A stretch of 64,000 nucleotides of DNA from Candidatus Pacearchaeota archaeon (GCA_027021195.1 JALUUW010000003.1:4843-68842); one strand, 5' to 3'. Positions 3,417-21,775 are shown, counted from the stretch's first letter. A program made the numbers and translations. The notes: generated from the sequence alone by a model not told the origin.

Positions 3417-3623
3417 TAATTTTTAACAGAGGTAAAACTTTAAATATTTATTGGATTCCCTCTAACAACCCCTTCATTCAAAATAAAAGAAAAAGCCATT
3501 ACAGATATGACTATGATGCTAATTTGAATTAAGGACAAGCAAACCTTCGGCCCTTTTTTTGGGATGGGTTAATGAAAACAATGGCATTTATTCTTGTTTA
3601 TGGGTATTTACTAAGAATAATGG

Positions 3624-3839
3624 CTAAGGAAAACAGCCTAATTTTTCATGTGCTTTTATTAAAAAATCCCTGAAATCTTTTTTGCTTTCCCATACAGGAT
3701 TTAACTTGTTCCTGATTAAATCAAAATCTATCTTCTTTAATCTTCTAATCTCTGCTAATTCACTTATCATTCTTTCGTACTTTTCTTTTGATATTTTTGC
3801 CATTTCCATAATAGCTAAATGGGGCTGATATTTATACAA
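3624..3839 (-). CDS. hypothetical small protein (71 aa), last gene of the rSAM operon
   Basis: ORF lies 23 nt downstream of the HExxH gene on the same strand. No recognisable motif. Confidence 0.3.
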   Translation of the reverse strand: MYKYQPHLAIMEMAKISKEKYERMISELAEIRRLKKIDFDLIRNKLNPVWESKKDFRDFLIKAHEKLGCFP

Positions 3840-3862
3840 TTTTCTAAATAAAACAGGGAATC

Positions 3863-4531: not shown

Positions 4532-4547
4532 ATTCTTTTTTTGAAGG

Positions 4548-5072
4548 TTAAGCTTTTTGTTTATTTTTTAATAGTAATAAAATAACATTATGTTTATGGG
4601 GGGGCAAATTATCATGCTCTTCAATGGGGGTCTCATACATTCCTTCCTTCATTATTTCCCAATCAGAATATAGGTTTTTTAATTGTTTTAATGAAGGATA
4701 AAACCTATTTTGTGCATTTCTTGCCATAGGGTCTTTATCTGAAAAACAGATGATAAAAGTATGTCCTTGCTCAGAGGTATGTGTTTGTATCTTTTTTAAA
4801 ATATTTTGTGCAGTTACCTTATCTAAAAAATGCAAAACTAACGAAGCAATTATTAAGTCATATTTCTCTTTGAATTCAAAATTTGTTATATCTTCATTAA
4901 AGAATTTAAAATTTTTCTGGGAGATTTCCATAGGTCTTTTATCTACTCCAAGAACTTTTACGCCTTGTTTGGCAAATCTGAGAGATTTATGCCCTTTCCC
5001 ACAACCCAGATCCAAAACATTTTGAGGCTGTAGTTCTTTAAGATATTCTTTGACTTTATCCCTTATTATCAT
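4548..5072 (-). CDS. class I SAM-dependent methyltransferase (TehB-like, Methyltransf_11/25)
   Basis: VLDLGCGKG motif I. Post-I acidic residue. DLIIASLVLHFL motif II/III. Confidence 0.75.
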   Translation of the reverse strand: MIIRDKVKEYLKELQPQNVLDLGCGKGHKSLRFAKQGVKVLGVDKRPMEISQKNFKFFNEDITNFEFKEKYDLIIASLVLHFLDKVTAQNILKKIQTHTSEQGHTFIICFSDKDPMARNAQNRFYPSLKQLKNLYSDWEIMKEGMYETPIEEHDNLPPHKHNVILLLLKNKQKA

Positions 5073-5108
5073 TTATTAATTCTTTAAGTTTATTTTATTT
5101 AATTCTTT

Positions 5109-6170
5109 CTAATCTTGTGAGCTTCCCTGCACATATTCTTTAAAACACATAGGGTCTTTGGCCATATAATCTCCTGTTACTGCATAAGCAATTGCCCTAC
5201 ATCCTCTGCAGTGCACCACTTTATCACAAAGAGTATTCTCCCTCATTTTATTCAAATCTCTTAAATTTTGCATTACCTTGTTCTCTAAAATTAAATTACC
5301 TATTCCGTCACTTATGCGACCTATTTTAATAGGAAGTCTTCTACAAGGATAAACAGTTCCGTCCGATAATATTGAAAGCATTCTAAATCCTGCAGAACAC
5401 CCCCAAAGATATTTATTTTGCTCCTTTGCTGTTTTTATTACTTCGTTTTCTTTTTCCAATATTTGCCAAAGAACATCAGATTGAAGGACATTAATCTTAT
5501 CTCTATATTTTTCATTTAGTCTTTCAGTTTCTTTAACCATCTCGTAGATTTCTTTAGCATTAATAAATTCAGGATCTTTAATTCCTAAGTTTGAATCTGG
5601 ATTATAAGTTTTAAAACCCACTTTTTTAGCTCCTGCTAAAATTGCATTTTGGATAACATCCTCAAACTCTTTTTTATTAGACTGCATAAGAGTCATGGCT
5701 ACTGTAACATTTAAGCCTTCTTTTGAAGCATTTCTTATCCCTTCAATTGCCATATCATATGCAAAATCTTTTCTCCTAATTTTATTATGTGTGCGCTTAG
5801 ATCCATCAAGAGAAACTTGTATTGCTTCAACTTTTTGCTCCAAAAGTTCTCTAGCTTTTTTAGGAGTAATTAATGTGCCATTAGTTAACAAATTTGTTAT
5901 AACTTTTTTCTTACAAGCATATTCTAAAATTTCAAGATGATCTTCCCTCATTAAAGGATCTCCTCCCGAAATTGCGATTCTGGGTATCATCTCCCACCTT
6001 TTTGCTGTCTCTGCTAAATCATCTATCATTGATTTTACTTCATTTAAACTCATTAAATTATCATCTTGGATGTGGTCTACATTCCCTTCGTTGTTATGAT
6101 AACAATGGGAGCATTTAAGATTACAATCATTTGTGGAATCCCCTTGAATATATAAGTGTCTTTTAGCCAT
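5109..6170 (-). CDS. radical SAM / SPASM-domain enzyme
   Basis: CNLKCSHC Cx3Cx2C motif at residue 16 with no N-terminal RRE-like extension. ISGGDPL. C-terminal SPASM cysteines (CSAGF...YPCRR...CDKVVHCRGC). Confidence 0.8.
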   Translation of the reverse strand: MAKRHLYIQGDSTNDCNLKCSHCYHNNEGNVDHIQDDNLMSLNEVKSMIDDLAETAKRWEMIPRIAISGGDPLMREDHLEILEYACKKKVITNLLTNGTLITPKKARELLEQKVEAIQVSLDGSKRTHNKIRRKDFAYDMAIEGIRNASKEGLNVTVAMTLMQSNKKEFEDVIQNAILAGAKKVGFKTYNPDSNLGIKDPEFINAKEIYEMVKETERLNEKYRDKINVLQSDVLWQILEKENEVIKTAKEQNKYLWGCSAGFRMLSILSDGTVYPCRRLPIKIGRISDGIGNLILENKVMQNLRDLNKMRENTLCDKVVHCRGCRAIAYAVTGDYMAKDPMCFKEYVQGSSQD

Positions 6171-6212
6171 TACAAATTAAGAGCAGTTTTTCTAAATCTA
6201 TTTGGAATTTTT

Positions 6213-6338
6213 TTATTCTAAAGAATAGACATCATCTGCGTAACATGCATCTGGACCACAAGCATCGCAAGGGTCACAGTGATAACGATCTTTCTCTTGA
6301 GACGCTTTATTAGTTATATAAGAACTAATATCTAACAT
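6213..6338 (-). CDS. candidate RiPP precursor peptide (41 aa, Cys/Asp-rich core)
   Basis: Hand-translated ORF not in the track: MLDISSYITNKASQEKDRYHCDPCDACGPDACYADDVYSLE. ATG start. Stop lies 42 nt upstream of the rSAM start on the same strand. TTTTTATA element about 55 nt upstream. Confidence 0.45.
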   Translation of the reverse strand: MLDISSYITNKASQEKDRYHCDPCDACGPDACYADDVYSLE

Positions 6339-6392
6339 ACCCTTAAGAAAAGCTTGTTCCTCAGCAGTTCTCTCCAGTTTATTTGTTTTTGC

Positions 6393-6400
6393 TATAAAAA
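6393..6400 (-). promoter_or_regulatory. candidate archaeal TATA box (TTTTTATA) for the precursor-rSAM operon
   Basis: AT-rich octamer about 55 nt upstream of the peptide ATG on the minus strand. Confidence 0.25.
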
Positions 6401-6801
6401 GCCAACAACCTTAATATATTTAAATTTTATTGTAATGGATTTATTTTGTAGTGCCTAAGTAACTTAAAAAGTTATTTATTTGCAGATTTTTCAGAAGAAA
6501 CAACCTCAAACTCAGTTGAGCCTATATAATTTCCATCTACATTAAACACTGTTTTGCAAATCCCTAATTGTAATGATTTGTCAAAACAAAATCCTCTTCA
6601 TTTACATTTCTTGAAAACAAATTGTTTCATTTAATCCATATACCCCGCAGCTCTGCTGCGGTTGGGAGCTTCACTTCAGAACGAGATGGGGCAGAAGTCA
6701 TGACTCCAGAATTAGCGGATGTGTCTTAACAGGAAGTCTTTCTCCTCTGGAAGAATACGTTCTTCTCTCAAAAACCCTTCCCTATCAGCTATTCTAAGGG
6801 T

Positions 6802-7386
6802 TCACTCAGATGTTCTGCTGATTTCATTCAGATATTCTGCTAATTGCCTCATATCATCAGGCTTCCCCTCTAATTCAGAATAATATTTATTGTCCATTTC
6901 AAAGTAAAACCTATTCACGAAATCAATAGTCTCTTTGTATTTGCTTATGCCTTTTTTCTCAACTAATTTATTAAAGCAGTCAATATATCTCATTAGGGCT
7001 TCAGTCAACTCCCTTGTTTCCTCGCTCTCCTTAAGCAGGGCTTTATCCATATTAGAATATGCTTTATCCAAAAATTCAATTACTTCTTTATAATTCTCAA
7101 CCCCTTTTTTTTCCACCAATTTGTAAAAAGCACACGCATATTCTGTTAAAGCCATAGTCAGGTCCCTGATTTCCGGGTCTTTGATTCTATGTATCTCTTT
7201 CTGGAATCTATCCATATCATCAAGTTCTTTTTCTATTGTCTCTTGGAAAGTTTGGTTTTTTATTTTTGACCGAAAAATGATTCCGTGTTCCACTAGACCT
7301 TTATGGAATCCTCTTAATCCTTTCAATATCTTTTCATTTAATTTAATTTTTTCTGCTTCTATCATTTTAATCTTACATAGTTCCAC
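6802..7386 (-). CDS. hypothetical coiled-coil protein with an internal ~42-aa tandem repeat
   Basis: Repeat LTxAL..Y...F.KLVEKKG...YKE.I.F seen twice in the translation. Confidence 0.4.
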   Translation of the reverse strand: MELCKIKMIEAEKIKLNEKILKGLRGFHKGLVEHGIIFRSKIKNQTFQETIEKELDDMDRFQKEIHRIKDPEIRDLTMALTEYACAFYKLVEKKGVENYKEVIEFLDKAYSNMDKALLKESEETRELTEALMRYIDCFNKLVEKKGISKYKETIDFVNRFYFEMDNKYYSELEGKPDDMRQLAEYLNEISRTSE

Positions 7387-7624
7387 CTACCCTTATGCAT
7401 TAATAAAAAAGACAAAAAAAGAAATTATCTTTCAGGTCTTATTTCTTTTCAGATCCTTCAGTCATTTCTAAAACCTTCTCATTTGGCATAGAGGTTTCTA
7501 CAAGACCCAAATGGAAATTCTCAAGACCTTCCAACATTTCCCTGTTAAATCCACATAGGGGCATTTTCTTTTCCTCCTAATTTAGTTAACTATAATATAT
7601 AATTACTTTATATAAACTATTCTA

Positions 7625-8668
7625 TTGGATAATTTTACAAAAAAGAAATATTTATATATTGGTACTTATTTTATGTATAAAATGATGAAATTGGATGTAT
7701 ATGACCGGAGAATTTTGGAGGTTTTAATAGAAAACTCCGAAGAGCAAATAAGCGCTATTGCCAAAAAGATAAGGCTCAGAAGAGAAAACGTTAACTATCG
7801 GATAAACCGCATGGTTAAATCAGGTCTGATAAAAGAATTTAACACAATCTTAAATGAAAGAGCGTTGGAGCTTTCCCACTATGTTGTTTTTGTAGAACTG
7901 ATTAAACTGGAAGAAAAAACAGAGCTGGAAATTATAGATTATCTCAGGAATAGCTCCTTTGTGAGCTGGATAGGAACTTCAGCAGGGAGATGGAGCCTGG
8001 TTTTTGATATAATAGCCTATGATAAAGGCTCAAATTTTGAAAAGATATTAACGGAGTTTCTCAAAAGATTTGGCGGAGATCATATTGAAAACTACGAGGT
8101 TTTGAGGCTGAATAAAAGAGATTATTTTGCATCAAAGTTAATTGGCAAAGAAAAATATTTCCATGAAAATGCTGAAAGCAAGGCCTCTCTTAAAAGATTG
8201 GACAATATAGATCTCAGAATACTTTCATTGCTAAACAAAAATTCAAGAAAAACTTTGGTAGAAATATCTTCTAAAATAGGCTTGACTCCAAATGGAGTTA
8301 ATAATAGGATTAAGGGCCTAATCAATAATGGCATTATAACAGGATATACGATTTCCATTAATTGGAAGAAATTAGGCTATGAGTGGTTCACAATACAAAT
8401 TAAGCTGCACAAGTATGGTGAAGAAGTATATGCCAAAATGGAATCTTTTTTCAGGAATCACAAGAAAGTGGTGTTTTACTACAGATATCTTGGAGGAAGC
8501 TGGGACTATGATATAGGGGTTTTGGTTCAGAATTCAGACGAATTAAGGGATTTTATCAATGAATTCAGGAGAAATCTTTCGGATGTTTCCAAAATCTCTG
8601 ATGTTTTTTTGACTCTTGAAGAAATAACAGGATATAAAATGCCTGAAGGGGTTTTTAATCCTTCTTAA
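7625..8668 (+). CDS. tandem (duplicated) Lrp/AsnC-family transcriptional regulator
   Basis: Two HTH_AsnC-like segments (LDVYDRRILEVL...ISAIAKKI and LDNIDLRILSLLNKNSRKTLVEISSKIGL), each followed by a RAM-like domain. True start is probably at an internal Met near 7673-7685. Confidence 0.6.
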   Translation: MDNFTKKKYLYIGTYFMYKMMKLDVYDRRILEVLIENSEEQISAIAKKIRLRRENVNYRINRMVKSGLIKEFNTILNERALELSHYVVFVELIKLEEKTELEIIDYLRNSSFVSWIGTSAGRWSLVFDIIAYDKGSNFEKILTEFLKRFGGDHIENYEVLRLNKRDYFASKLIGKEKYFHENAESKASLKRLDNIDLRILSLLNKNSRKTLVEISSKIGLTPNGVNNRIKGLINNGIITGYTISINWKKLGYEWFTIQIKLHKYGEEVYAKMESFFRNHKKVVFYYRYLGGSWDYDIGVLVQNSDELRDFINEFRRNLSDVSKISDVFLTLEEITGYKMPEGVFNPS

Positions 8669-8689
8669 TTCGGCAACGAGATTATGCCC

Positions 8690-10177
8690 TCAGCTGTTAT
8701 ACCCCTCAACTCCGATAAAATTTGTTGAGCCTCCGCAGTCTCCAAGAGAGATACATGCATTATTCATCTCTTTCTTCCATGACTCTGAAAGGCACTCACA
8801 GTTTTTCACGCACTTTTCCTTTCCAGTCAGCCCTTTTTCAAATACTACTGTGCATTGAGTGTCTGCTATAGAGCATAAAGATTCAGCCTCAGTGTCCTCT
8901 TCCCAAAAATTAAATCCAGGGGCATTTTCAGGAACGCATCCTATTGAAGACCATTTGCAGTCTCTCCTGTCTTTATTCTCGCAGTCTTTTTTGGTTGTTT
9001 GAGAGGAGCAGTCCTGCCATTTATTTACTCTGCATGCAGCTGTCTTAAATCCGTCAATGTCGTCCTGGACACAGACTTCCTGCCTGAAATCCGCGCACGG
9101 CTCTATGCTTACCTCTCCGTTATAACACACCAGCCTGAAATGCCTGCTTCCAGGAAGGCTTTTGTCTGTCCCGCTTGCATCTGCGCACCATGTTTCCCCA
9201 TGCTTATATTTTTTTCCAAGATAATTGCAGCTTAAGTCTCTGCAGATGTTGTCTCCGTAAGTTGGCTTTACTCTGTCCTTTCCTCTTTCATAGGATTTGC
9301 AGGTGCTTCCCAAAAAATAATCGCAGTTGCCGCACCCGGATGATCCGGCATTTCCGTCTGCTGAACTAAATCCGCAGCTCTTTTCCTTTCCATAAGCCTT
9401 TGTCCAGTAGTTTTTGTCTTTTATTTTTGAGGCATCATAAATATTCGCAGGATTTCCGCAGCTGTCAACAAAGAAGACTTCATCTCTTCCTTCAATGCAC
9501 GTTGTTCTTTCTGAGGGTCCGCAGTTTGTTGCAAGCTCTTCTGCAGAGCATAAAAGCCCCTCGTAAAACTCTACATTGGAATCAGGAGAGCTCGCTTCCA
9601 TTTTTCGGCACTCTCTTTTTGTTATGAACTTGCATGTTCTTGCCATCTCTTCAGGATCCTCAAACACACATGCTCCTTTGACATCTGAAGTAGCAGAAGC
9701 AATGCATTCTATCTCGCTTCCTATGTTTGTCCTGAAGTCAGTTTCGAGCCCGTAAAGGGACGAAAGCCTTTTGCATCTCGTCTGCGTTACAAAAGCAGCC
9801 TGGTCTCCTATCAGGCAGCACCCAAGAGAGCATTGGGGGATTTCATCCATCTTCCCTTCGTTCCATACCCCTCCTGAATCCTCGCATACTTTTTGAGGAG
9901 TGTTTTCCATGCAGGTTCCCTCCTGGCTGTCTATGCAGGTTCCAAGCTTGCAATAAGAGGTCGCCTCGCAGGAAGTCGGGACTTTTCTGTATGAGCTGTC
10001 GCATTTATCCTGAGGAGCGTTCTGGCACCATGCATTGTTTACTGTTTTTTCGCAGCAGTATGAAACCTCTCCGACAGCTGAGACAATTGCAATATATGCT
10101 ATGACTGCCAAAAAAATCAGCGCAACTCCTGCTGCTAACCCTTTTTCAAAAACATTATTTGTCTTGTTTCTTCCCAT
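8690..10177 (-). CDS. Cys-rich secreted or surface protein with a class III-like N-terminal signal (FEKG|LAAGVALIF)
   Basis: N-terminal charged segment, then KG and a hydrophobic stretch. More than 50 Cys. N-terminal domain is paralogous to the 1247-aa protein (CC..T....C...(K/E)LSS(L/F)YG). Confidence 0.5.
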   Translation of the reverse strand: MGRNKTNNVFEKGLAAGVALIFLAVIAYIAIVSAVGEVSYCCEKTVNNAWCQNAPQDKCDSSYRKVPTSCEATSYCKLGTCIDSQEGTCMENTPQKVCEDSGGVWNEGKMDEIPQCSLGCCLIGDQAAFVTQTRCKRLSSLYGLETDFRTNIGSEIECIASATSDVKGACVFEDPEEMARTCKFITKRECRKMEASSPDSNVEFYEGLLCSAEELATNCGPSERTTCIEGRDEVFFVDSCGNPANIYDASKIKDKNYWTKAYGKEKSCGFSSADGNAGSSGCGNCDYFLGSTCKSYERGKDRVKPTYGDNICRDLSCNYLGKKYKHGETWCADASGTDKSLPGSRHFRLVCYNGEVSIEPCADFRQEVCVQDDIDGFKTAACRVNKWQDCSSQTTKKDCENKDRRDCKWSSIGCVPENAPGFNFWEEDTEAESLCSIADTQCTVVFEKGLTGKEKCVKNCECLSESWKKEMNNACISLGDCGGSTNFIGVEGYNS

Positions 10178-10178
10178 T

Positions 10179-10967
10179 TTACACTAAAACTTCATCAACT
10201 CCGTATCCAGGAGGCCATGCAAGGCTTCTTGAAGCAAACTGGAATTTATTTCCGCTGTTGAGGTCTGTTAAAATATAGATTGTAGTGCCGTCGGATTGTT
10301 TTTTCTTCTCAACTTTCAAATCACGGTAATAGTTCATGTAGGTTGTTGTTTCAGCATCTCCGTATCTTGTTTCCCATGCAATTATGCTGTTTGCAATACT
10401 TAATAGTTCATAAAGATTATTGTTCAGGACTACTCTTAAATTGTCATAGCTTTCTGAAGATTCTTTTGTGAGAGTTAAGGAGTTGCTGAATGTAGCGACA
10501 ATTCTTTTTGGAAGCAGCTCAACATCAGGCTCTCCCTGCTTTAAGCTTACTTTATACCCTCTTTTCTCATAACTCTCTTTCATGGAATCAAAGCACTCTT
10601 TTGCCTTTCCTCTTATGTCTTTTTTTATCTCAGACTCAATGTGCTTTTTCAGCATTGGCTGCTGCACCACGCATGTTTTGTAGTACTCCTCAGTGTAGCA
10701 AAGATATTCTACTTTTTCATCATTATACAAAAAATAGTGTTCTGGCTTCAGGCTGCCACCCTGCATTGAAAGCCTTTCAACAGAATTTTTAATATCCTCT
10801 TCCATGCAGTTTTGAATAAATGCAGACGGATTCATGCTCTCGAGCCACAAATTAGACCCTATCTTTGGATAAAACAAGTAAGATAAAACACCTATAATCA
10901 CAATCATTATTGCAATTATGATGAAAATCGTCACTTGCCCCTTTCTTTTCCATGATATTTCCCGCAT
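10179..10967 (-). CDS. type IV pilin-like protein (class III signal peptide KRKG|QVTIFIII)
   Basis: Basic N-terminus, KG-Q cleavage-like site and a hydrophobic helix. Paralog of the 14771..15601 protein (SMQGG, YLCYT, PML..H). Start overlaps the downstream gene's start region. Confidence 0.45.
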   Translation of the reverse strand: MREISWKRKGQVTIFIIIAIMIVIIGVLSYLFYPKIGSNLWLESMNPSAFIQNCMEEDIKNSVERLSMQGGSLKPEHYFLYNDEKVEYLCYTEEYYKTCVVQQPMLKKHIESEIKKDIRGKAKECFDSMKESYEKRGYKVSLKQGEPDVELLPKRIVATFSNSLTLTKESSESYDNLRVVLNNNLYELLSIANSIIAWETRYGDAETTTYMNYYRDLKVEKKKQSDGTTIYILTDLNSGNKFQFASRSLAWPPGYGVDEVLV

Positions 10968-11025
10968 TTTTATTTAAAGGAAATCTGATTTATAAATGTT
11001 GATAGTTTTTAATGTTTTTAATAAA

Positions 11026-14000
11026 TTAAATTGATTCCGGCCTTAATATAATTGCACAGCCAGGATTTGTATTTCCTCCAAGATCTTCGCATTTGATGTA
11101 ATGCCTCTTTCCAGACTCCCACTCGCTGGTATGGGTTCTTGAAAATACATCTGTCATAGGCTTTGCATCCTCTCCTCGAATGTCAAATCCGCATCCATTA
11201 AAACTGTAATAGCATTTTGCATCTTCGTCTGTTATTACCTTTAACTCTCCCTCGCTGTAAGCCCTTACTATTTTTGGAGCTTCAGTGTCAAGCTCTAAAG
11301 TGAATACTGCATTTCCATAAGCAGTATTTCCTGCATCGTCTTCGCACTTTACATAAATATTGTAGTCTCCTTTCATCATAGTGTTGAAGTTCTGCTTATG
11401 CCTCCTGGAGAAGCTCTCAAAAAACAGAGTCATGTCATCATATCCTGAGAAACTGTAATAACAGGAAGACTTTCCATTCCTCGCCCCTCCGGAAGTCTCA
11501 ACTTCAAGGTCTACTGAGATTGGCTCGAACCATCTCTTGATTTTTCCCTGAGGGGTTATTGAGGTTATGTTAAGATTTGTCTCTGAAACATAGAGTGTAT
11601 AAACAAAATCCTCTTCATTTACATTTCTTGAAGTGTTCTCTGGAGGAAGCCATGGCTGGTCTTTGCACCTGATGTAAAAATTGTTTTCTCCTTCTGCAAG
11701 CCCTTTAAGAGTGGTGCTGCACTGCCATCCCAACAGCTCCCTCTCTGTTATTCCTGTTTTGCAATCCATTGAATTGCTCATTTCCTCATAGCTTTTTCCG
11801 CTTTCAGTGCTGTACCTGCATTCAGCAGGCTCACTTAGGTAAATCTGAAGAGGCGTTTCTGTAACATTATATTTCAGGAAACTTTCATCCTCTGGAACTG
11901 CAACTGTTCTTGAATGGTCTACAGCAGTTGTGTCTGGCCCTGAGTTAATGCAGAAATTCACCGTATACTCGTCAATATTGTAGTTTCCATGATAGTCCTT
12001 GCACTTAACATACATATTCATGTTTCCAAACATCTCTCTTATGTCTCCTGCAACATCATAGACGCTTAAGCTGTCCAGGCTTGGCATTGAAAATGAAAAA
12101 GTGTGGTTGAGAGTGAATGCATTTTGCTCAACAGGGTATCCTCTCATTTCGTCATATTCTGTTTTCTGGAAATCAAACTTGCACTGCGCAAATTCATCTG
12201 TTTTTAGGCTGAAGCTGACAGGAGTGAATTCAGGGATGCAGTTTCCGTTTTCCCTTCTTATCTCAACTCTTTTTGCATCTTCGTTATTGAACTTGTAGCC
12301 CTCGTCAATATCTCCTGCAGAAATTACAGGAGGATTGCTTTCATAAGGGATGCTCTCGCAGACAGGGTTTTCTGTTTCTTCATTAAGGATTCTGCATGCC
12401 TGCCCAAGGCTCTCGCATCTGTATCTTGTGCAAGGCATTCCTTTTTCAGCAAGCTCGTTGCATCTTTTGCAATTCTCTCCTCCTGCAGGAGCCTGCCATG
12501 GCATGCATGTAAACTCAACAACCCTTTCTTTTGTCTTTCCCCATCCAACAACTATGACATATACCATTATTATTACTGCTGCTGCCAGTGCGTATGTTCC
12601 AAAATTCAATCCCCATTTGAGCCATCCGACCTTCATTAGGCCAAGTATTCCTCCTGCAACCCCTCCTGCTACTGTCAGGACTGTTGCTGCATTTCCAGAC
12701 CTTCCCAAAGACTGGGCAATAAATGCTCCTGCAACTGTTCCTATTGCAAACCCTGCTGCTGCCCATGCGAATGCTCCTATGGATGTATATGTGGTAGAAA
12801 CAACTGCTTCAGATCCTGCAAAAATTGTCTTTGTTCCCAATAATGATGTTGTTGTTTCATAAGCTCCATAAGTGTAGGTGGTAGTTCCTATTCCCAAATG
12901 GCTAATGGCCATAATCAAGGTTCCAGCTCCTCCTGAAACTTCTCCAAGCTGCTTTATTACAGCCTGTATTTTATCCTCTTTAGGCTTTTTGCCAGAATTA
13001 CCGCTTATTGAAGAGATGTAATCATCAATTTCCTGGGGCTTTACATACTGGCCTTCTACAGGATCTGCATAATCCTTATATCTTTCCCATGAAACACTTG
13101 GAGACCGCGTTACTTTAATGTTATCGCTTCCCTCTCCAATATAATTGATATAGCTTCCGCAATCTCCGAGGCTGATGCAAAGGTCATTCATCTGCTCTGC
13201 AAAAACTCCTTTCTCGCAATTGCAGTTCTCAATGCACTCCCACTTTCCTCTTGAGTTTTTTTGGTATATGACAGTGCATTTTTGATTTGCCATTGCGCAT
13301 ATGCTGTCTGCAATAGAGCTTTCCCTTTGCCTGAACCCTCTTGGATATCTTCCAACGCAGACATCAAAGCTGAACCCGTCATCAATATTAATGTTTTTAA
13401 TCATGCAGTGCTTGTTTTTATTGCATTTTTCAGCCATGTTTCCCTGTGAATTGTAATCAAGGCACTTTGTAGCTTCGTTCACAACGCATGAGGCTACTGA
13501 AAAGCTTTTTCCGTTTTCCTCTATTTCTGATTCTGTGCAAAGCCCCCCTCTATAGTCACTGCATCCCTCTGTCTTTACTTCTCCATCAATACATATTTTT
13601 CTCCAGTGCCTGCTTCCTGCAGGATCTTTCCCTTCTCCTATATAAGAGTCATAAGCACACCAGCTCTCCCCGTTCTTTCTCTCTTTTCCGCCTGTCTCAG
13701 GAGATGCAGGGCAGTTTTTGTTTTTGCATATATAATCTCCGTCTTTTGCTTTTTTTCCTCCTGCCTCGTCTGAAGGCGCGCACATGCTTCCAAGGAAATA
13801 ATTGCAGTTTCCGCACTCTTCTGACTGAATATTGTCTGAATCAGGGTTGCAGCTTTCCTGTTTGCTTAACACCTTTCCGTTATTCCACGAAAAATCCCTG
13901 TCTGAGGAATAGATGTTTTCCCTGTTTCCGCAGGAATCAATCCAGTAAATCTCGTCTTTTCCCTCAATGCAGCTTATGCTTGCCTGCCTTTCACATTCAA

Positions 14001-14769
14001 CCCCCATTTCTTTAAATTCCGGATTTGAACATAGATGGTCTTTGTAAAAGTCTCCCTGAATGCTGAGGCATCTTGATTCTGTTGTAAATTCGCATCTGCC
14101 TCCTTCAAGGATGCATGCCCCTTCAAACTGGCTTGCAGAAAGAGCAAGGCATTCAAATTCTGTTTCAAGGTCTCTAAAGTCTTTTTTAAACCCGTAAAAA
14201 GATGAAAGTTTTTCACACCTTTTTTCTGTAACAAACTGCGCATTATCTCCCAAAACACAGCATCCTTTCTGGCATTCGCTTACTAAACATGATTCTTCAT
14301 TTTTCCATATTCCTCCTCCAGACTCGCATTTTTTTCTGGTGGATTTTGTTGTGCATAGCCCCTCATCTTCGTCAATGCAGCATCCTATCTTGCAGTCAGC
14401 AACTTCATCGCATTTTGTCGGAAGAGGATTGTCGCAGCTTTCAGTATCAAAAAACCCGACATCCTGGCATATTGCTCCGCTTTTTGTAACAGGGCAGCAT
14501 TTCCATGACTCTTCTTCTGCAGAAACAATTCCTATCTGTTTTATTGATAAAAATCCCACTAAGAGGCTTGCTCCTGCAGCAATGAGATTCCCAAGACTGT
14601 CTTTTCCTTTATCTCTTTTTATTATAATGGAGCTGCTGTCAGGCTGGCTGCTCATTCCTATAACATAGCTGGTTGCAGGACTCATATTAACCAGAAGGAA
14701 AATCTGGAACATAACAACAGCTAGCAAGCTTAGTTCTGTTTTTCTTTCCCTGATTTTTATTGACTTCAT
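11026..14769 (-). CDS. giant (1247 aa) Cys-rich surface protein with a central Gly/Ala-rich multi-TM region
   Basis: N-terminal hydrophobic segments. Cys-rich ectodomain homologous to the 8690..10177 protein. Residues ~600-730 have several hydrophobic G/A-rich helices. C-terminal Cys-rich beta-rich domains. Confidence 0.5.
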   Translation of the reverse strand: MKSIKIRERKTELSLLAVVMFQIFLLVNMSPATSYVIGMSSQPDSSSIIIKRDKGKDSLGNLIAAGASLLVGFLSIKQIGIVSAEEESWKCCPVTKSGAICQDVGFFDTESCDNPLPTKCDEVADCKIGCCIDEDEGLCTTKSTRKKCESGGGIWKNEESCLVSECQKGCCVLGDNAQFVTEKRCEKLSSFYGFKKDFRDLETEFECLALSASQFEGACILEGGRCEFTTESRCLSIQGDFYKDHLCSNPEFKEMGVECERQASISCIEGKDEIYWIDSCGNRENIYSSDRDFSWNNGKVLSKQESCNPDSDNIQSEECGNCNYFLGSMCAPSDEAGGKKAKDGDYICKNKNCPASPETGGKERKNGESWCAYDSYIGEGKDPAGSRHWRKICIDGEVKTEGCSDYRGGLCTESEIEENGKSFSVASCVVNEATKCLDYNSQGNMAEKCNKNKHCMIKNINIDDGFSFDVCVGRYPRGFRQRESSIADSICAMANQKCTVIYQKNSRGKWECIENCNCEKGVFAEQMNDLCISLGDCGSYINYIGEGSDNIKVTRSPSVSWERYKDYADPVEGQYVKPQEIDDYISSISGNSGKKPKEDKIQAVIKQLGEVSGGAGTLIMAISHLGIGTTTYTYGAYETTTSLLGTKTIFAGSEAVVSTTYTSIGAFAWAAAGFAIGTVAGAFIAQSLGRSGNAATVLTVAGGVAGGILGLMKVGWLKWGLNFGTYALAAAVIIMVYVIVVGWGKTKERVVEFTCMPWQAPAGGENCKRCNELAEKGMPCTRYRCESLGQACRILNEETENPVCESIPYESNPPVISAGDIDEGYKFNNEDAKRVEIRRENGNCIPEFTPVSFSLKTDEFAQCKFDFQKTEYDEMRGYPVEQNAFTLNHTFSFSMPSLDSLSVYDVAGDIREMFGNMNMYVKCKDYHGNYNIDEYTVNFCINSGPDTTAVDHSRTVAVPEDESFLKYNVTETPLQIYLSEPAECRYSTESGKSYEEMSNSMDCKTGITERELLGWQCSTTLKGLAEGENNFYIRCKDQPWLPPENTSRNVNEEDFVYTLYVSETNLNITSITPQGKIKRWFEPISVDLEVETSGGARNGKSSCYYSFSGYDDMTLFFESFSRRHKQNFNTMMKGDYNIYVKCEDDAGNTAYGNAVFTLELDTEAPKIVRAYSEGELKVITDEDAKCYYSFNGCGFDIRGEDAKPMTDVFSRTHTSEWESGKRHYIKCEDLGGNTNPGCAIILRPESI

Positions 14770-14770: not shown

Positions 14771-15601
14771 TTAAAGCCCAGGAGGTATTATGCAGCTTCT
14801 CACTGCAAACCTGAATTTTTCTTTGCTGTTTTCATGCCTGACAGTATAGATTGTTTCTAAATCGCTTGTCTTGAATCTGTCTATATTGAATTGGGGATTA
14901 ATAATCATAAAGCCAAGATAGTCAAAATTGCAGAACCTTGCCTCTTGACTCAAAATCTCCTGCACAACAGCTGCAATATCATAAAATCTGCTTGGAATAT
15001 TCGCTTCAAGGTTTTCTTTTTTTGAGCTCTCCTCTGTTCTTGTAAGAGTAATCTCGCTGTCTGTTTTAATAATCACTCTCTTTGAGATTAAGTCAACTTC
15101 AAATCCCCTGTAATCCATGCTGACTTCATAATTCTGTTTTTCAAGATTGTTTTTTAATTCATCAAAACATACTTCCATGTCCTCTGCAATATAATTTTTT
15201 ATTTCTTTTTTTAGATGGCTCATCAGCATTGGCTCGTGATTTATGCAGGGAACATAATAATTTTGAGTATAGCATAAATAAGAGATATTTACAGGGTCTT
15301 CACCTTCAAACCTGAAGGTTTTGTAGAGCTCTGGTTCAATATATCCTCCCTGCATGGAGATTGTGCCAATAGCTTCCTTGACCTTGCCTTCAATACACGA
15401 GCTTAAAAAAGCTTCAGGATTTTTTTCAGGGCTCTTTCCTGTTTTTATAGGAGCTTCTCCCCTAAAGAATAAAAACGATGAAATTGCAACAACAACAATC
15501 ATGCCTGCAATTATGAAAATAGTAACCTGCGAGCGTTTTGCCTTTGGAAAAGCCCTTTTATTAAACAGCAGGCCTAAGGCACGAGTTCCTCTTTTTTTCA
15601 T
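14771..15601 (-). CDS. type IV pilin-like protein (class III signal AKRS|QVTIFIIAG)
   Basis: Paralog of the 10179..10967 protein. Stop overlaps the start of the giant gene. Confidence 0.45.
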   Translation of the reverse strand: MKKRGTRALGLLFNKRAFPKAKRSQVTIFIIAGMIVVVAISSFLFFRGEAPIKTGKSPEKNPEAFLSSCIEGKVKEAIGTISMQGGYIEPELYKTFRFEGEDPVNISYLCYTQNYYVPCINHEPMLMSHLKKEIKNYIAEDMEVCFDELKNNLEKQNYEVSMDYRGFEVDLISKRVIIKTDSEITLTRTEESSKKENLEANIPSRFYDIAAVVQEILSQEARFCNFDYLGFMIINPQFNIDRFKTSDLETIYTVRHENSKEKFRFAVRSCIIPPGL

Positions 15602-15706: not shown

Positions 15707-16447
15707 CTAATCCTCTGTCTCAACTCTTGGAGCAAGAATAAAATTAAGTTCAAGATGCTCTGTTTTAATATCCATTCTCAGAGGATGGTCATTTGCGAAT
15801 TTCAGTGTGGTTTTCTCAGAAAGCTTTGACCCTTTCATAAACTTCTGAAGATATTCCAGACTGTATTTTGCCTTGCAGTTTTCTGCTTCTATTTTTGCCT
15901 CGTCTCCTGAAAATTCAGACTTTGCTGAGTTTATTCCTTTAGCTTCTATTATAAACTTTCCATCTTCAATTATGAATGAGCATGCGTCAGCCACAACAGC
16001 GCAGTCTTCAATAGAAGCAATCAAATCTCCTGAATCCATGTCAACTCTTGAGCTGAATTCTAAGTTAGGCATTTCTTTATCCTCGCTTTCAACATCAATA
16101 AGGCCTAAGGTGAAGCCCCTCTTAATCTTGTCCTGAATCTCTATGCTCAATAAGTTCTCCTTTTTTTCCAGAACTAAAGAGCTTCCGGAACCGCATCTTT
16201 TCAGAATTTTTTTCAGGCTGTCTAAATTAATGCCCAAAACCTCTTTTCCAGTTTCAAACTGGGAAAAAGCACTTTTTGGAAGCCTGAAACTAACCATTGC
16301 AACATTTGCAGGATCCATTGCCGTAATGCTCATCCCGAATTCACCTATCTTAATTCTTACCTCTGTAACCAACTCGGAAATTATATCAACAGCTTTTGAT
16401 AATAATGCAGGGTCTTCAAGTTTTACTAGCATTTTAGCTTCTATCAA
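15707..16447 (-). CDS. pcn: DNA polymerase sliding clamp PCNA
   Basis: 246 aa. Clear similarity to archaeal PCNA throughout (ITAMDPANVAMV, LKKILKR, LGLIDVE, FILAPRVE). Confidence 0.85.
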   Translation of the reverse strand: MIEAKMLVKLEDPALLSKAVDIISELVTEVRIKIGEFGMSITAMDPANVAMVSFRLPKSAFSQFETGKEVLGINLDSLKKILKRCGSGSSLVLEKKENLLSIEIQDKIKRGFTLGLIDVESEDKEMPNLEFSSRVDMDSGDLIASIEDCAVVADACSFIIEDGKFIIEAKGINSAKSEFSGDEAKIEAENCKAKYSLEYLQKFMKGSKLSEKTTLKFANDHPLRMDIKTEHLELNFILAPRVETED

Positions 16448-16588: not shown

Positions 16589-18202
16589 ATGCAGGAAAAT
16601 CTCAAAAATTCATCAGGGGAGCAAAGCTTCAAAGAGCAGAGGATAAGGAAGATAACTCATTTGTATTACTCAAGGCCGGACATACAGAAAGCAATTTTTG
16701 AATTCTCCAAAAACAGGGAAATTTCACCAAGATATTTTGAAGGCTTCGGCAAAAGGCCTGACAGCTTCCAGTATAAAGGAGATATATTTGAGCTTGTAAA
16801 AAAAGGAGCGACATCCTTTCATTGCTCAGAGGAATTGTGGCAGGACCCTCTTAAAATAACCACTGGAATGACAGAATCCCAGTCAAATGAGCTAAGAATC
16901 GGCTGGGACTTATTAATTGATATTGACTGCAAGTGGTTTGATTATTCCAAGCTGGCGGCAAAAGCAATAATTGGAGTTTTGAAAGATAATGGAATTAAAA
17001 ATCTGGGATTGAAGTTCTCAGGAAGCAAAGGATGGCACATCTTAATTCCCTGGAAATCTTTTCCAAAAGAAATAAATGGGGTCAGTTCATCAAATCTTTT
17101 TCCAGAGCTTCCAAGAAAAATTATAAATTATATAAGATTCCAGTCAGAAAAAAAACTAAAGGAGATGCTTCCTGAAGATTTTGAGGAGCAGTTTAAAGGA
17201 GTGAATATTAAGAGAGGGATAAAATGCAACAGGTGCAGTGAAATTGCCAGCCAGTATGTTTATGCTGTTTTTTCCTGCAGAAAGTGCGGAAGAAAAGAAT
17301 ACAAAAAATTCCATTCAAAAGGCCAGATGAAAAAATACAGCTGTCCTGAATGCGGGGCTGAATTTAAAATAGAGAGCCAACTTACCTATCATGAGTGCCA
17401 TCAGTGCAGGATAAATTCAAAATATAACCCAGATGATTTCTCGCAAACAATACAGGAGGATTTGTTTGATTTAATGGGGCTGGATATTATTCTGGTTTCT
17501 CCAAGGCACTTGTTCAGGATGCCTTATTCCCTCCACGAGAAAACAGCACTTGCAAGTGTAGTAATTGATGAGCAGGATATTGACGGTTTTCAGTTAAAAG
17601 ATGCCAGCCCTATGAAAATCTCTTCAGAAAAAATAAAAAATTTTTCCCCTGTCTCAGCAGAAGAAGCTGAAGCTGAAGCTCTTGTGAGAGAGGCTCTTGA
17701 CTGGACAAAAGACCTTCAGATTGCAAGAGGGGAAACAGAAGAAAAAATAACGGGAAAATATGCAGAGTACAAGCCGGTTAAGCTTGACAATCTTTCAGAG
17801 CAGAATTTTCCGCCATGCATAAAAAATATTCTAAAAGGAATTTCAGACGGAAAAAAGAGGGCTTTGTTTGCTTTAATAAATCTTTTCAGAAGCGTAGGAA
17901 TGGACAAGGAAAAAATGGAGAATGAAATTTATGAGTGGAACAAAAAAAACAATCCGCCGTTAAAAGAAGGGTATATTAAATCCCAGCTTTCATGGGCTTA
18001 CAGAAAAAAGCCAATAATGCCCCCTAACTGCAAGGAATTTTATCAGGGAATTGCAGCATGCCAGCCAGATGATTTGTGCCTCAACAAAGGAATAAAGAAT
18101 CCAGTTAATTATGTTGTAAGAAGAAGCATTTCAAAAAGAAAAGGGCATAGAAAGTCCAGGACAAATGGAAACAGTAAGGATAATTTTAAAAAGAAGAATT
18201 GA
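16589..18202 (+). CDS. priS: DNA primase, fused PriS catalytic domain plus PriL-CTD-like Fe-S domain (single-chain archaeo-eukaryotic primase)
   Basis: AEP motifs GWDLLIDIDC and FSGSKGWHIL. Zn-ribbon cysteines. C-terminal half carries four conserved Cys (FPPC, PNC, AAC, DLC), typical of the PriL C-terminal 4Fe-4S domain. Confidence 0.7.
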   Translation: MQENLKNSSGEQSFKEQRIRKITHLYYSRPDIQKAIFEFSKNREISPRYFEGFGKRPDSFQYKGDIFELVKKGATSFHCSEELWQDPLKITTGMTESQSNELRIGWDLLIDIDCKWFDYSKLAAKAIIGVLKDNGIKNLGLKFSGSKGWHILIPWKSFPKEINGVSSSNLFPELPRKIINYIRFQSEKKLKEMLPEDFEEQFKGVNIKRGIKCNRCSEIASQYVYAVFSCRKCGRKEYKKFHSKGQMKKYSCPECGAEFKIESQLTYHECHQCRINSKYNPDDFSQTIQEDLFDLMGLDIILVSPRHLFRMPYSLHEKTALASVVIDEQDIDGFQLKDASPMKISSEKIKNFSPVSAEEAEAEALVREALDWTKDLQIARGETEEKITGKYAEYKPVKLDNLSEQNFPPCIKNILKGISDGKKRALFALINLFRSVGMDKEKMENEIYEWNKKNNPPLKEGYIKSQLSWAYRKKPIMPPNCKEFYQGIAACQPDDLCLNKGIKNPVNYVVRRSISKRKGHRKSRTNGNSKDNFKKKN

Positions 18203-20064
18203 CTCTATCAGACATGGGAAAAAGAGTTCAAGCGTCATGTCTTTTAGTGATATCTCTGCTTTTTGTAATTCTATCAGCATCTTTTATGGCTGCAGAAGGC
18301 AACTCAACAAGTTCTGATGCGGACAAAATCAATAAAGCATATGGGTGTCTTGAAGATAAAGTAAAGGGAAAATGCCCCTCTCTTTCTCTGGAAGAGAGAA
18401 TTTTCTCTCTATTAGCTATAGGAGAGTGTAAAGAAGAGCTTCTTTCTAATTCAAAAGACGAGGAGTGCTGGCCAAAATCTGATTGCAAGGTTAAGCCTAC
18501 AGCTCAGGCTATTCTGGCCCTTAACGGAGCAAACAAAGATACAAGCAGGGCAGAAGAGTGGCTTTTATCTCAGAATTCCACTCCTTCTGAAATTGACTGG
18601 TTTCTGCAGATTGAAAGCGCAGAAGCCACAACATGTAATGTGGATTACTCAGGAAATTCTTATCAAGTATCTATTGACGCTGAAAAAAAACTGAGCTCTA
18701 ATGCAGGAAGTTGCCTCAGTCTTTATGGAGGGGATTACTGGTTTAGAATCTCTCCTTCATGCTATGATAACGAATTCGCAATTTCATGCGACAAGCCTTT
18801 TCTTACAACGCTTTTGTTTAAGAAAAAAACCTCTTCAACAATTCATGTCTCTCAAAAAACAAACTCTGCTGCATCAGAAGGGACAACAATAGAGAAGGTT
18901 GGCTCTCTTTGCTTTTCAAAAGGAGGCTCCTGTGATTATGAGGGGAGCTTATGGGCTGCTTTGGCACTAAACTCACTGGGTAAAGATGTTTCATCATTTA
19001 TGCCTTACCTTATAACAATGGCTGATGAGAATGGCAAGTATCTTCCGGAGTCTTTTTCCTATATTCTGACAGGATATGAGGATTTTCGCAATGAATTGCT
19101 CTTAAAACAAAAAAGCAACAAGTACTGGATGGAATCAGGGGACAAGTTTTATGATACTGCTCTTGCATTGTATCCGTTGCAGTATGAAACTCCTGAAGAA
19201 AAGACAAATGCAGTAAACTGGCTTTTGGAATCCCAGGACAATGAAGGGTGCTGGGAAGGCAACATAAGAAATACTGCTTTTATTCTTTATTCTGTCTGGC
19301 CAAAAGACTTTGCTGTTGATGAGGAGGATGAAAGAGTTGATTGCGAGAGTGCAGGATATTATTGCATGTCTGAGATAAACTGTGAAGGAGAGGTTCTTCC
19401 GGACTATTCCTGCTCAGGAGTTTTTAAGTGCTGCGACACCCCTATCCCTCTGGAAACCTGTGAAGAAATGGGCGGACAGGTCTGCAACTCAAATCAGGCA
19501 TGCGTTGAAGGAAGAGTTGAAGACTCTCCAGACCTTGATTTTGGAGAGGCTTGCTGCCTGGGTGGCTTTTGCGAAGACTCTGCCCCCGTTGAAGAAGAAG
19601 TGTCAGAATGCGAGTCATACGGAGGGGTGTGCAGAACAAACGGGTGTTTTGATGATGAAGAGGAATCTTCCTATTCCTGTGACTTCACTACTGACTCCTG
19701 CTGCACTGTAAAAATTTCTCCTAAAAAAAGCTATTGGTATGTCTGGGTGCTGTTGTTTTTAATAGGGCTTGTAGCTATTGGCATAGTTTTCAGGGATAAA
19801 TTGAGGCCTTATTGGTTTAGGCTGAAGTCAAAGTTTAAAGGCAAAGGCTCTGGAACTGGAAGCCCTGCTCCAAGAAGGCCAGGGTTCCCTCCTCCGTCTT
19901 CAAGAATTCCTTTAAGAAGGAGAATTATGCCAAGAAGAATAATTCCTCCGCAGCAGACTCCTCAAAATATTCCAAGACAATTTCGCCCTTCTGTTCAAAA
20001 GAAACAAAAATCAAGCAAGGAGCTTGATGAAGTTCTTAAAAAGCTCAGGGAAATGGGAAATTGA
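18199..20064 (+). CDS. secreted surface protein with a Cys-rich membrane-proximal module, C-terminal TM anchor and Pro-rich tail
   Basis: Sec-type signal peptide. Cys-rich region (CCLGGFC). TM helix YWYVWVLLFLIGLVAIGIVF. PRRPGFPPPSS tail. Confidence 0.45.
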   Translation: MTLSDMGKRVQASCLLVISLLFVILSASFMAAEGNSTSSDADKINKAYGCLEDKVKGKCPSLSLEERIFSLLAIGECKEELLSNSKDEECWPKSDCKVKPTAQAILALNGANKDTSRAEEWLLSQNSTPSEIDWFLQIESAEATTCNVDYSGNSYQVSIDAEKKLSSNAGSCLSLYGGDYWFRISPSCYDNEFAISCDKPFLTTLLFKKKTSSTIHVSQKTNSAASEGTTIEKVGSLCFSKGGSCDYEGSLWAALALNSLGKDVSSFMPYLITMADENGKYLPESFSYILTGYEDFRNELLLKQKSNKYWMESGDKFYDTALALYPLQYETPEEKTNAVNWLLESQDNEGCWEGNIRNTAFILYSVWPKDFAVDEEDERVDCESAGYYCMSEINCEGEVLPDYSCSGVFKCCDTPIPLETCEEMGGQVCNSNQACVEGRVEDSPDLDFGEACCLGGFCEDSAPVEEEVSECESYGGVCRTNGCFDDEEESSYSCDFTTDSCCTVKISPKKSYWYVWVLLFLIGLVAIGIVFRDKLRPYWFRLKSKFKGKGSGTGSPAPRRPGFPPPSSRIPLRRRIMPRRIIPPQQTPQNIPRQFRPSVQKKQKSSKELDEVLKKLREMGN

Positions 20065-20443: not shown

Positions 20444-21775
20444 ATGAAAAAAAGCATAATTATTCTTGCAGTTTTATTACTGGCAATTCAATTTGCCTCA
20501 GCAGTTGAGTTTGACATGAAATCAGAATTCAGTCAGGGAGAAACAATTATTGCCAGAGTTTCTGGAAATTTCATAGACCCTGTTCTCAGGGAAAACATAC
20601 ATTTTTACAGGGGCAATGTGCCGACTTCAATAATCTATGATGTTGCAAGAATAAGCGGAGAGTTTTACATTTATGCTATTCTCTCTGGAAAAAAAGAGGG
20701 AAATTATTCAATAGTGATAGAGAATGCAAAATACATGAAAGGCTCTCAGGTAGTTGAAGATGCAATAACAAAAAACTTCTCAATAACCAACAGTACAGCA
20801 GATTTTTCAGTAGATCCCGGGTTTATTATAACAAAAGGGAAATTTTTTGTGCAGGTTCAGAATCTGAAGGATTATAAAATAAATGTCAATGCAAAAATAC
20901 TTGCAGATTCAGGAAACAATGGCGGAGGGCTTTTTGATTCTTTGTTTGGAAACAATGGTGAAACAAATGTTTATGAGAAATCAGTTGCTCTGAAATCTGG
21001 CGAGATTAAAAAGATTGATTTTGAATTGGCAAATCTAACTGGCTCAGAACTGACAACTCTTGAAGTAAGCAGTGAAAATCTAAAATACAGCATCCCTCTT
21101 TATATTATAACGAATATGACTGGCGAGGAAGGGGAAAAAGAAAAGGGGATTAAACTTAAATTTGATCCTTCTGAATTAAATGTATCAATCCCTACTTCTT
21201 CAAACACTACAAGAATCATCTATCTGCGAAATTCCGGAGAAGTGGCAATAGAGAATATTTCTTTATCAGTGTCTGATTCCCTGAAGGATTATCTTTCTCT
21301 TTCAGCATATGATATTAATGGGCTTGAGGGGAACTCAAGTGTAAAAATAGAGGTTTATCTTTCTTCAGGAGATATAGAAAGAACTTTTGAAGGGCAGATA
21401 ACTGCAAAAGCTCCTTCAGCAGCTGAAGGAAATGACGTCTATGCTTATGCTGCTGTTTTTTTGAATTTTGTAAAAGGGTTTAAGCCTTTGGACAATGAAA
21501 CAGGAGAGATAAACTATGGAAAAGAAAATACCTGTTCGGAAATGAATGGTGAAATCTGCGCTGAAAATATGGAGTGTTACGGAGACCTAAAATATGCTTT
21601 AGATGGTGTTTGTTGTTTGGGAAGCTGCAGGGAGCTTAAGGAGAGCCCTACAGGAAAAATAATCGGATGGTTAATAATAGTTCTTGTTGCAGTCTTCCTT
21701 ATATGGTTTTTCCGGTTTAAATACAAGGAGGCAAAAAAAGAAGTAAATCTTTTGAAAATTGCCAAGAGAAAGTGA
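20444..21775 (+). CDS. secreted surface protein with a C-terminal Cys motif (CCLGSC) and TM anchor
   Basis: Signal peptide MKKSIIILAVLLLAIQFASA. C-terminal CSEMNGEICAENMECYGD..GVCCLGSC followed by a TM helix. Confidence 0.4.
   Translation: MKKSIIILAVLLLAIQFASAVEFDMKSEFSQGETIIARVSGNFIDPVLRENIHFYRGNVPTSIIYDVARISGEFYIYAILSGKKEGNYSIVIENAKYMKGSQVVEDAITKNFSITNSTADFSVDPGFIITKGKFFVQVQNLKDYKINVNAKILADSGNNGGGLFDSLFGNNGETNVYEKSVALKSGEIKKIDFELANLTGSELTTLEVSSENLKYSIPLYIITNMTGEEGEKEKGIKLKFDPSELNVSIPTSSNTTRIIYLRNSGEVAIENISLSVSDSLKDYLSLSAYDINGLEGNSSVKIEVYLSSGDIERTFEGQITAKAPSAAEGNDVYAYAAVFLNFVKGFKPLDNETGEINYGKENTCSEMNGEICAENMECYGDLKYALDGVCCLGSCRELKESPTGKIIGWLIIVLVAVFLIWFFRFKYKEAKKEVNLLKIAKRK

Follow-up and report, generated by a model that had tools for sequence, protein, structure and literature searches.

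A stretch of DNA of 64,000 nucleotides from a Candidatus Pacearchaeota archaeon (GCA_027021195.1, JALUUW010000003.1:4843-68842), referred to here as the window, encodes a large cysteine-rich protein with a hydrophobic block in the middle of its chain. We consider it probable, at about 60%, that this is a conserved envelope protein of DPANN archaea of the Pacearchaeota/Woesearchaeota group, in which the mid-chain block anchors two outside domains, and that it is accompanied by a prepilin-like partner and a split second module. The analyses establish the domain architecture, its conservation, the synteny of the locus and the location of both ectodomains on the same side of the membrane. The protein has the features expected of a surface protein, namely an export signal with a conserved VSA and a tandem immunoglobulin (Ig)-like ectodomain, and the simplest reading of the block is that of an anchor and not a transporter domain. 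What is new is an anchored Ig-like-domain surface protein with its anchor, unusually, in the centre of the chain, together with a new Cys-rich domain and a prepilin-like partner.

An earlier note, made from the nucleotide sequence, had described Cys-rich halves with an internal Gly/Ala-rich hydrophobic block, and composition and Kyte-Doolittle hydropathy place these where the note had put them. Cysteines occupy residues 91-537 and 755-1238, with none between 537 and 755; over residues 601-750 there are 0 to 1 Cys, Gly plus Ala amount to 24-32% per 100 residues, and charged residues are very rare. The block itself, at about residues 598-745, is nearly uncharged and rich in Gly, Ala and Thr, has Cys-rich domains on either side and is the sole hydrophobic segment past the N-terminal signal region. 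Hydropathy windows of at least 1.4 fall at residues 662-689, 693-715 and 719-747 and, N-terminally, at 9-37 and 58-84; the strings quoted in the note lie at residues 614-630, 670-689 and 700-744. An AlphaFold2 model of residues 86-1247 (54 sequences in the alignment; mean predicted local distance difference test score [pLDDT], 78.8), a check that had been proposed with the original observation, gives three consecutive helices in the block: HA (661-687), HB (692-713) and a last, transmembrane (TM) helix (721-741), with pLDDT of 66-80 and loops of 4 and 7 residues. Confidence falls below a pLDDT of 50 at residues 584-664 (model residues 499-579), where one long helix is predicted at about 598-625. 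This helix, H1 (about 598-632), carries an LG.ISGG.G motif and is preceded by a flank with a net charge of -2.5. The stalk L1 that follows it ranges from 2 to 49 amino acids (aa) across the family, contains 13.8% Thr and includes poly-Thr tracts in some homologs.

The N-terminus begins with a hydrophobic helix that contains a conserved Gln (FQIFLLVN), and a VSA is conserved immediately ahead of the first CC. An optional second hydrophobic stretch of this export signal (residues 58-84, LLVGFLSIKQIG) is absent from orthologs P0028, P0031, P0037, P0040, P0042 and P0044; we considered it as a TM pass and rejected this, several orthologs being without it. Since the second stretch is dispensable in this way while the VSA is conserved, the N-terminus acts as a signal sequence and not as a two-pass anchor. 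Beyond it, the N-ectodomain holds three repeated CC/GCC beta-hairpin units and is modelled confidently by AlphaFold2 as small beta-hairpins and short helices. It has no Pfam family and no sequence relative in the PDB, and structural comparison, in which this domain was searched only within the larger model, gave no large match above the Ig-like background. By our reading of the DSSP string, the C-ectodomain consists of a Cys-rich unit at about residues 748-805 (7 Cys) and then four beta-sandwich domains resembling Ig or fibronectin type III (FN3) folds. Its Cys residues are mostly in closely spaced pairs along the beta-sandwich region, and the last element of the protein is a beta-sandwich, its C-terminus lacking a hydrophobic segment.

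In structural comparison, the AlphaFold2 model resembles Ig/FN3/cadherin arrays, and the bacterial Ig-like Pfam families Big_13 and Y_Y_Y give weak matches in half of the family members. The likeness to the tandem adhesion ectodomains of PTP-delta, NCAM2, desmogleins, GhpA and SiiE is one of generic fold, at 5-13% identity, and carries no sign of common ancestry or of a shared ligand. The ectodomain has no structural similarity to the three-domain class II fold of fusogens or fusexins (HAP2-like). Searches of Pfam, NCBIfam and PDB sequences returned nothing above threshold for the whole protein, for profiles of the N- or C-domain, or for the block alone.

A database search yielded 619 protein clusters related to the large protein; those listed are mostly 1200-1400 aa long, have no Pfam domain and carry no functional name apart from a label on one member (P0041, discussed below). 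When one genome was scanned for each species, 323 genomes contained relatives, and the best 80 of the 323 are nearly all labelled Pacearchaeota, Woesearchaeota or Nanoarchaeota. Where a cluster source names an organism, it is a metagenome-assembled genome (MAG) of Nanoarchaeota or Pacearchaeota, and no homolog was found on viral contigs. Nearly every Cys in both halves is invariant or >90% conserved across the family. One Woesearchaeota MAG (L080) carries the large gene as two overlapping open reading frames (ORFs) of 665 and 663 aa (6831-8828 and 8825-10816); the break lies just upstream of the hydrophobic block and may be genuine or result from a frameshift in the assembly. None of the papers searched describes the family. 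One metaproteome study (PMC11537232) lists Pacearchaeota entries only as "hypothetical proteins," and its supplements contain no peptides matching the family. In Castelle et al. 2021 (PMC8204110), the Pacearchaeota-specific Module 222 is entirely without functional predictions, and many DPANN lineage-specific families are predicted to be membrane bound or extracellular.

The gene sits in a conserved locus whose order is primase, PCNA, pilin-like gene, large gene, second pilin-like gene, N-only gene and C-only gene, the last two being named for the ectodomain of the large protein to which they correspond. Of 65 loci, 61 have a pilin-like gene immediately upstream of the large gene, the median distance being 0 nucleotides (nt); PCNA is upstream in 48 of 56; and in 56 of 58 the large gene is followed by a pilin-like gene and an N-only gene. 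C-only paralogs, of 680-860 aa, occur in 32 of the 37 loci with enough sequence, and none was found in the window. In most related loci the fused primase gene is also kept next to the operon. In the window, the first pilin-like gene (encoding p276) is 1 nt from the large gene, and the second (p262) is 1 nt from the N-only gene (p495). By eye, a TTTATAA-type box lies 29 nt before the ATG of each gene pair (that of p262 being TATA-like, TTTATAAA), an arrangement that fits two leaderless archaeal transcription units.

Proteins p262 and p276 are paralogs (35% identity, E 3e-52). The ectodomain of p276 is alpha/beta with conserved Cys, and at its processing position RS stands instead of RG. Across the family, 100 of 120 members have basic residues, [KR]G/QVTIF (the slash marks the predicted processing site) and a hydrophobic helix; positions -2/-1 are RG or KG in 77. 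We took as the class III criterion the FlaFind-type motif [KRDE][GA][ALIFQMVED][ILMVTAS]x3 ahead of a hydrophobic H-domain close to the N-terminus; KGQVTI of p262 matches it, as do 100 of the 120 family members. KGQV is the site listed for the Methanococcus maripaludis EppA substrates EpdB and EpdC, with the +1 Gln hallmark (PMC4371748). Like EppA-processed EpdB and EpdC, p276 and p262 have a basic N-terminus, KG/QV, a hydrophobic helix of about 20 residues and, in the family, +1 Gln. Unlike typical pilins, they are larger (about 260 aa), have no significant match to a pilin fold and have no pilus-assembly genes nearby; processing is predicted.

These similarities raise the question of whether the large protein is itself a giant pilin-like or pilus-associated adhesin, assembled together with p276 and p262 by a peptidase and an ATPase encoded elsewhere. 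The processing motif shared with EppA substrates would be explained in this way, as would the start of the C-only paralogs (KRG-x-IALSQIIILL), the conserved Gln in the N-terminal helix of the large family and the apparent translational coupling of the partner gene; the conservation of the signal sequences suggests a retained, functional helix. Neither a prepilin peptidase nor a pilus ATPase was evident in the window: no polytopic membrane protein was seen among its ORFs, and the part of them scanned against Pfam gave no such match. Proteins p276 and p262 match no Pfam pilin family, and their alpha/beta ectodomains have no significant pilin-fold match. We regard assembly of the large protein into a pilus-like structure as unlikely.

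The placement of the two ectodomains on the same side of the membrane draws on paralogs and orthologs in which the parts of the large protein occur separately. The N-only paralog of the window, p495, aligns with residues 50-545 of the large protein (37% identity, E 1e-88) and ends where the hydrophobic block of the latter starts, its own hydrophobic segment being N-terminal only. In general, the Sec signal peptides of N-only paralogs are ordinary and end in ..VSA or ..ISA, and these proteins have no TM block and no further hydrophobic segment, which indicates that the N-domain is a secreted domain. For the C-domain, one argument comes from P0117, an ortholog from archaeon AR13 (L002/L003, 10001-13840) that was seen on 27 contigs. 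This protein and those encoded by very similar genes in two other species genomes (L024 and L037) carry a signal peptide but lack Gly-zipper helices and any credible TM segment in the block. The Cys residues of both domains are kept, NxS/T sequons are many, the block is replaced by a polar linker, and an Asn-rich, sequon-rich insert is added. With a signal peptide present and no TM segment in the block, the C-domain of such proteins must be exported. In the AR13 clade the locus contains three modules, and the second full-length copy is the natural anchor-less variant.

The C-only paralogs have an N-terminal TM segment (KRG-x-IALSQIIILL..SYAIG..VSG), a variable Pro/Thr-rich region that sometimes contains Cys, homologs of HA and HB, a strong TM segment and the C-domain. 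By sequence, the block and the C-domain are one evolutionary module. The AR13-type export, the extracellular-type Ig-like folds with conserved Cys pairs and the layout of the C-only paralogs all put the C-domain outside, and both large domains must accordingly be outside the cell. The multi-helix block between two extracellular-looking domains is real and conserved, and the outside location, which had been no more than an appearance in the original description, is backed by these several independent arguments. The protein is not simply outside with one terminal anchor. We also considered signal-peptidase cleavage between GWG and KTK, which would release the C-domain, and rejected it as a general feature, because the C-only lineage, which is homologous here, reads ..MYKKE.. 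and lacks small residues at -1 and -3.

If HA, HB and helix 721-743 all spanned the membrane, the N-domain would be outside and the Ig-like C-half would be cytoplasmic, with metal-binding Cys. The three helices of 21-27 residues and their short loops in the AlphaFold2 model are what this topology predicts, the last helix is followed by a basic KTK (flank net charge, +0.4 to +0.7), and CxxC...CxxxxC at residues 767-785 can be read as a zinc ribbon. However, the AR13-type ortholog, with a signal peptide, no TM segment and the same Cys, has an exported C-domain; the matches of the C-half are confined to Ig/FN3/cadherin folds of extracellular type and to bacterial Ig-like Pfam families; its Cys are mostly in close pairs along the beta-sandwiches and not in metal-binding clusters; and the C-only paralogs have one definite TM segment plus HA after an extracellular variable region. 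A cytoplasmic C-half is accordingly improbable in our estimate.

With both flanking domains outside, the number of membrane crossings made by the block must be even, and its exact value is one that we infer. In the C-only paralogs, HB is short, polar and Lys-containing, so that two passes, by HA and the last helix, are simplest there. By homology, the large protein most likely also makes two passes, and its HB would pack at the membrane. Four passes, with H1 among them, may instead apply to the large protein: its short loops look more like those of a fully embedded three-helix unit, which would need H1 as a fourth pass. The poly-Thr tracts in the linker between H1 and HA look extracellular, which argues against that role.

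Several points weigh against our interpretation. Taken alone, the 4- and 7-residue loops between three confident helices look like a three-pass bundle, which would put the ectodomains on opposite sides; for both to be outside, either HB must not span or the weak H1 must. The positive-inside rule gave no help with the pass count, as loop net charges are near zero in both paralog lineages. We rejected sequon density as evidence that a domain is outside: N-glycosylation sequons are fewer than expected in the N-domain (0.30 observed versus 1.04 expected per 100 aa) and match expectation in the C-domain (1.09 versus 1.20), so there is no enrichment and no family-wide support. Finally, the suggestion that the complex builds a surface layer or a cell-cell attachment structure has architecture and synteny as its whole basis.

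The hydrophobic character of the block is kept across 115 homologs, with mean hydropathy of +0.7 to +1.3, whereas the flanking domains have values of -0.4 to -0.9; the block is therefore not a chance feature of one sequence. By identity it is the least conserved part of the protein (majority-residue frequency of 26-42% versus 55-70% in the flanking domains), and with linkers that differ widely in length among homologs it is also the most length variable. The last helix alone (721-743; Kyte-Doolittle, 2.45; G742 >90% conserved and G744 invariant) is strongly hydrophobic and favorably inserting, with a median dG19 on the Hessa scale of -1.8; HA (+2.8) and HB (+2.2) are marginal, and H1 (609-632; +5.5) is weak. 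The earlier view of several consecutive hydrophobic helices thus holds for a conserved multi-helix glycine-zipper segment, and strong hydrophobicity is confined to one helix.

Glycine-zipper is an apt description: in the HA-HB region GxxxGxxxG occurs in 88 of 115 homologs, compared to 38 +/- 4.7 in composition-preserving shuffles, and Gly columns are conserved at 673, 677, 681, 689, 692, 702 and 706. HA (661-687) and HB (692-713), joined by a 4-residue turn, have the form of a glycine zipper 2TM unit, that is, two GxxxGxxxG helices and a short turn. PF05433 (Glycine zipper 2TM) scores 14.6 bits against the block alone (E=0.032, residues 673-710) and 12.1 bits against the whole protein, neither of which reaches its gathering threshold of 24.2 bits. 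Like this domain (Rick_17kDa_Anti, in SlyB/PCP-type lipoproteins), the segment has two short Gly/Ala-rich helices, a tight turn and GxxxGxxxG faces, and the profile aligns over positions 2-39 of 43, although the score remains below the gathering threshold. The PF05433 domain belongs to small bacterial outer-membrane lipoproteins, whereas here the segment is internal to a 1247-aa archaeal protein, and the zipper hairpin is followed, unlike in PF05433, by a third, strongly hydrophobic helix. The other Pfam match of the block alone, in a scan at E<=10, was DUF6297 (E 0.029). No transporter or channel family was matched by the block alone in that scan, and the whole protein has no above-threshold match in Pfam or NCBIfam; a homology search of the block alone thus led to no known transporter domain. 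The record name "GRP family sugar transporter" on the full-length homolog P0041 was not reproduced by NCBIfam, which gave no match, or by Pfam, whose matches are weak and Ig-like only; the name looks like a mis-annotation.

GxxxGxxxG motifs are typical of homo-oligomeric channel helices, and the earlier note had suggested that the block may be a pore-like or membrane-inserting segment. The zipper helices would then oligomerize into a channel, or insert conditionally into a host membrane, as a conduit to the host. In keeping with this, the motif is conserved, the insertion energies of HA and HB are marginal (+2 to +3), as would suit helices that depend on partners, the block has a sub-threshold likeness to the Glycine zipper 2TM domain, and DPANN archaea are predicted to be symbiotic. 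Against it stand the following: no other region of the protein is as poorly conserved or as variable in length as the block; in the AR13-type ortholog it is wholly replaced by a polar linker while both ectodomains are kept; HB is polar and Lys-containing in the C-only paralogs; and no transporter or pore family is matched. A hairpin lying outside its own membrane would, in addition, leave a single pass and a cytoplasmic C-domain, in conflict with the same-side evidence. The idea is not borne out, and we hold a pore or host-membrane insertion to be very improbable. That the operon is a lineage-specific Pacearchaeota/Woesearchaeota cell-contact apparatus, made up of the prepilin-like protein, the double-ectodomain protein and its split second copy, whose zipper hairpin oligomerizes and opens a channel or bridge to a host cell, is likewise very improbable, and we know of no described counterpart of such a mechanism.

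In the envelope-protein interpretation, the large protein would be exported by its N-terminal signal sequence and would display two disulfide-stabilized domains outside the cell, the novel 470-aa Cys-rich N-domain and the C-domain of a Cys-rich unit plus four Ig-like sandwiches. The block would serve as the membrane anchor, in the form of a two-pass hairpin of helix 721-743 and one zipper helix, with the remaining zipper helix packed against the hairpin at the membrane. The GxxxGxxxG faces most plausibly let helices pack tightly against each other, whether inside the hairpin or from one protomer to another, and the Thr/Ser-rich stalk would space the N-domain from the membrane. The protein would be made together with p276 and with the split second module, consisting of p262 and the secreted, N-only p495. 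We infer from the architecture and the synteny that the complex may build a surface layer or a cell-cell attachment structure.

Tight synteny, high conservation and Ig-like arrays with a Thr-rich stalk underlie the resemblance to surface-layer or attachment proteins. Archaeal S-layer and surface glycoproteins that invite comparison are Haloferax csg, Nitrosopumilus SLP and Sulfolobus SlaA/SlaB. Like these, the large protein is predicted to be exported, is composed mostly of tandem Ig-like sandwiches, has a Thr/Ser-rich stalk at its anchor, is encoded by a lineage-wide gene of the core genome and exists in two-component versions, fused or split. Unlike S-layer proteins, it has its anchor in mid-chain, an extra, novel 470-aa Cys-rich domain and an obligatory prepilin-like partner gene. 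It has neither the C-terminal TM segment nor the PGF-CTERM/archaeosortase signal of an S-layer anchor, and no sequence homology to any described S-layer protein. The likeness is one of architecture alone, and a lattice is not evidenced.

Table 1. Parts of the large protein and genes of its locus, in window coordinates (residue numbers refer to the large protein)
Feature	Coordinates	Strand	Description
p495, N-ectodomain-only paralog	8690..10177	(-)	Signal peptide ending IVSA, 43 Cys
p262, second prepilin-like protein	10179..10967	(-)	N-terminal KG/QVTIFIII; p276 paralog
Large protein, ORF	11026-14769	(-)	1247 aa, 66 Cys
C-ectodomain, residues 748-1247	11029..12528	(-)	Small Cys-rich unit plus Ig/FN3-like sandwiches
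Interfacial loop, TM and junction, residues 716-747	12529..12624	(-)	Trp/Lys loop, TM 721-743, conserved GWGKTK
Glycine-zipper helical hairpin, residues 661-715	12625..12789	(-)	HA 661-687, tight turn LG-RSGN 688-691, HB 692-713
Linker, H1 and stalk L1, residues 561-660	12790..13089	(-)	Acidic linker, amphipathic Gly-rich helix, Thr/Ser/Gly-rich stalk
N-ectodomain, residues 85-560	13090..14517	(-)	About 470 aa, 45 Cys, nearly all invariant
Export signal, residues 1-84	14518..14769	(-)	Lys/Arg-rich start, hydrophobic helix, SY.I.Q motif, VSA
p276, prepilin-like partner	14771..15601	(-)	276 aa, KR-S/QVTIFII N-terminus, one TM helix
PCNA	15707-16447		Archaeal core gene beside operon
Fused PriS-PriL primase	16589-18202	(+)	537 aa, matches small and large primase subunit families

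Between 8.7 and 23 kb of the window, envelope genes form a cluster in which PCNA and primase are interposed. A 621-aa ORF at 18199-20064 (+), whose start overlaps the primase stop, contains 31 Cys and has a signal-like segment at its N-terminus and a TM segment at its C-terminus. It has no match in Pfam or NCBIfam and, by BLAST, no relation to the N-domain of the large protein; we read it as another putative, uncharacterized Cys-rich surface protein. A 602-aa gene occupies the same position beside the primase in another locus (L001). Two further predicted surface proteins have a signal peptide and a C-terminal TM anchor: one of 443 aa at 20444-21775 (+), without a family, and one of 248 aa at 22302-23048 (-), with a sub-threshold match to the Lamin Tail Domain. 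The G+C content is 29-33% over positions 1-8000 and 39-43% over 8001-14000, which contains the Cys-rich operon; the rise may reflect Gly/Ala/Cys-rich coding content. Elsewhere, the window, which is part of a small genome, encodes three radical SAM proteins with SPASM domains, at 550-1716 (+), 5109-6170 (-) and 50317-51624 (+), and two paralogous Cdc48-type double-AAA ATPases, at 55104-57398 (+) and 57805-59988 (+), with a 127-aa ORF between them. Further archaeal core genes include tRNA synthetases and a topoisomerase along with Cdc48.

Few uncultured archaea are as widespread as Pacearchaeota and Woesearchaeota, and the biology of these two groups is described in one account (PMC8421398) as poorly understood for want of cultured isolates. 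The family is defined here by a syntenic operon in 323 species-representative genomes, by fused, split and anchor-less variants and by a prepilin-like partner. If the block were more than an anchor, the protein would be a candidate for the long-sought machinery of host connection. As it stands, the result is a well-supported description of a new surface-protein family and not of a new mechanism, and the members of this family are targets for studying how these cells build their surfaces and contact their partners.

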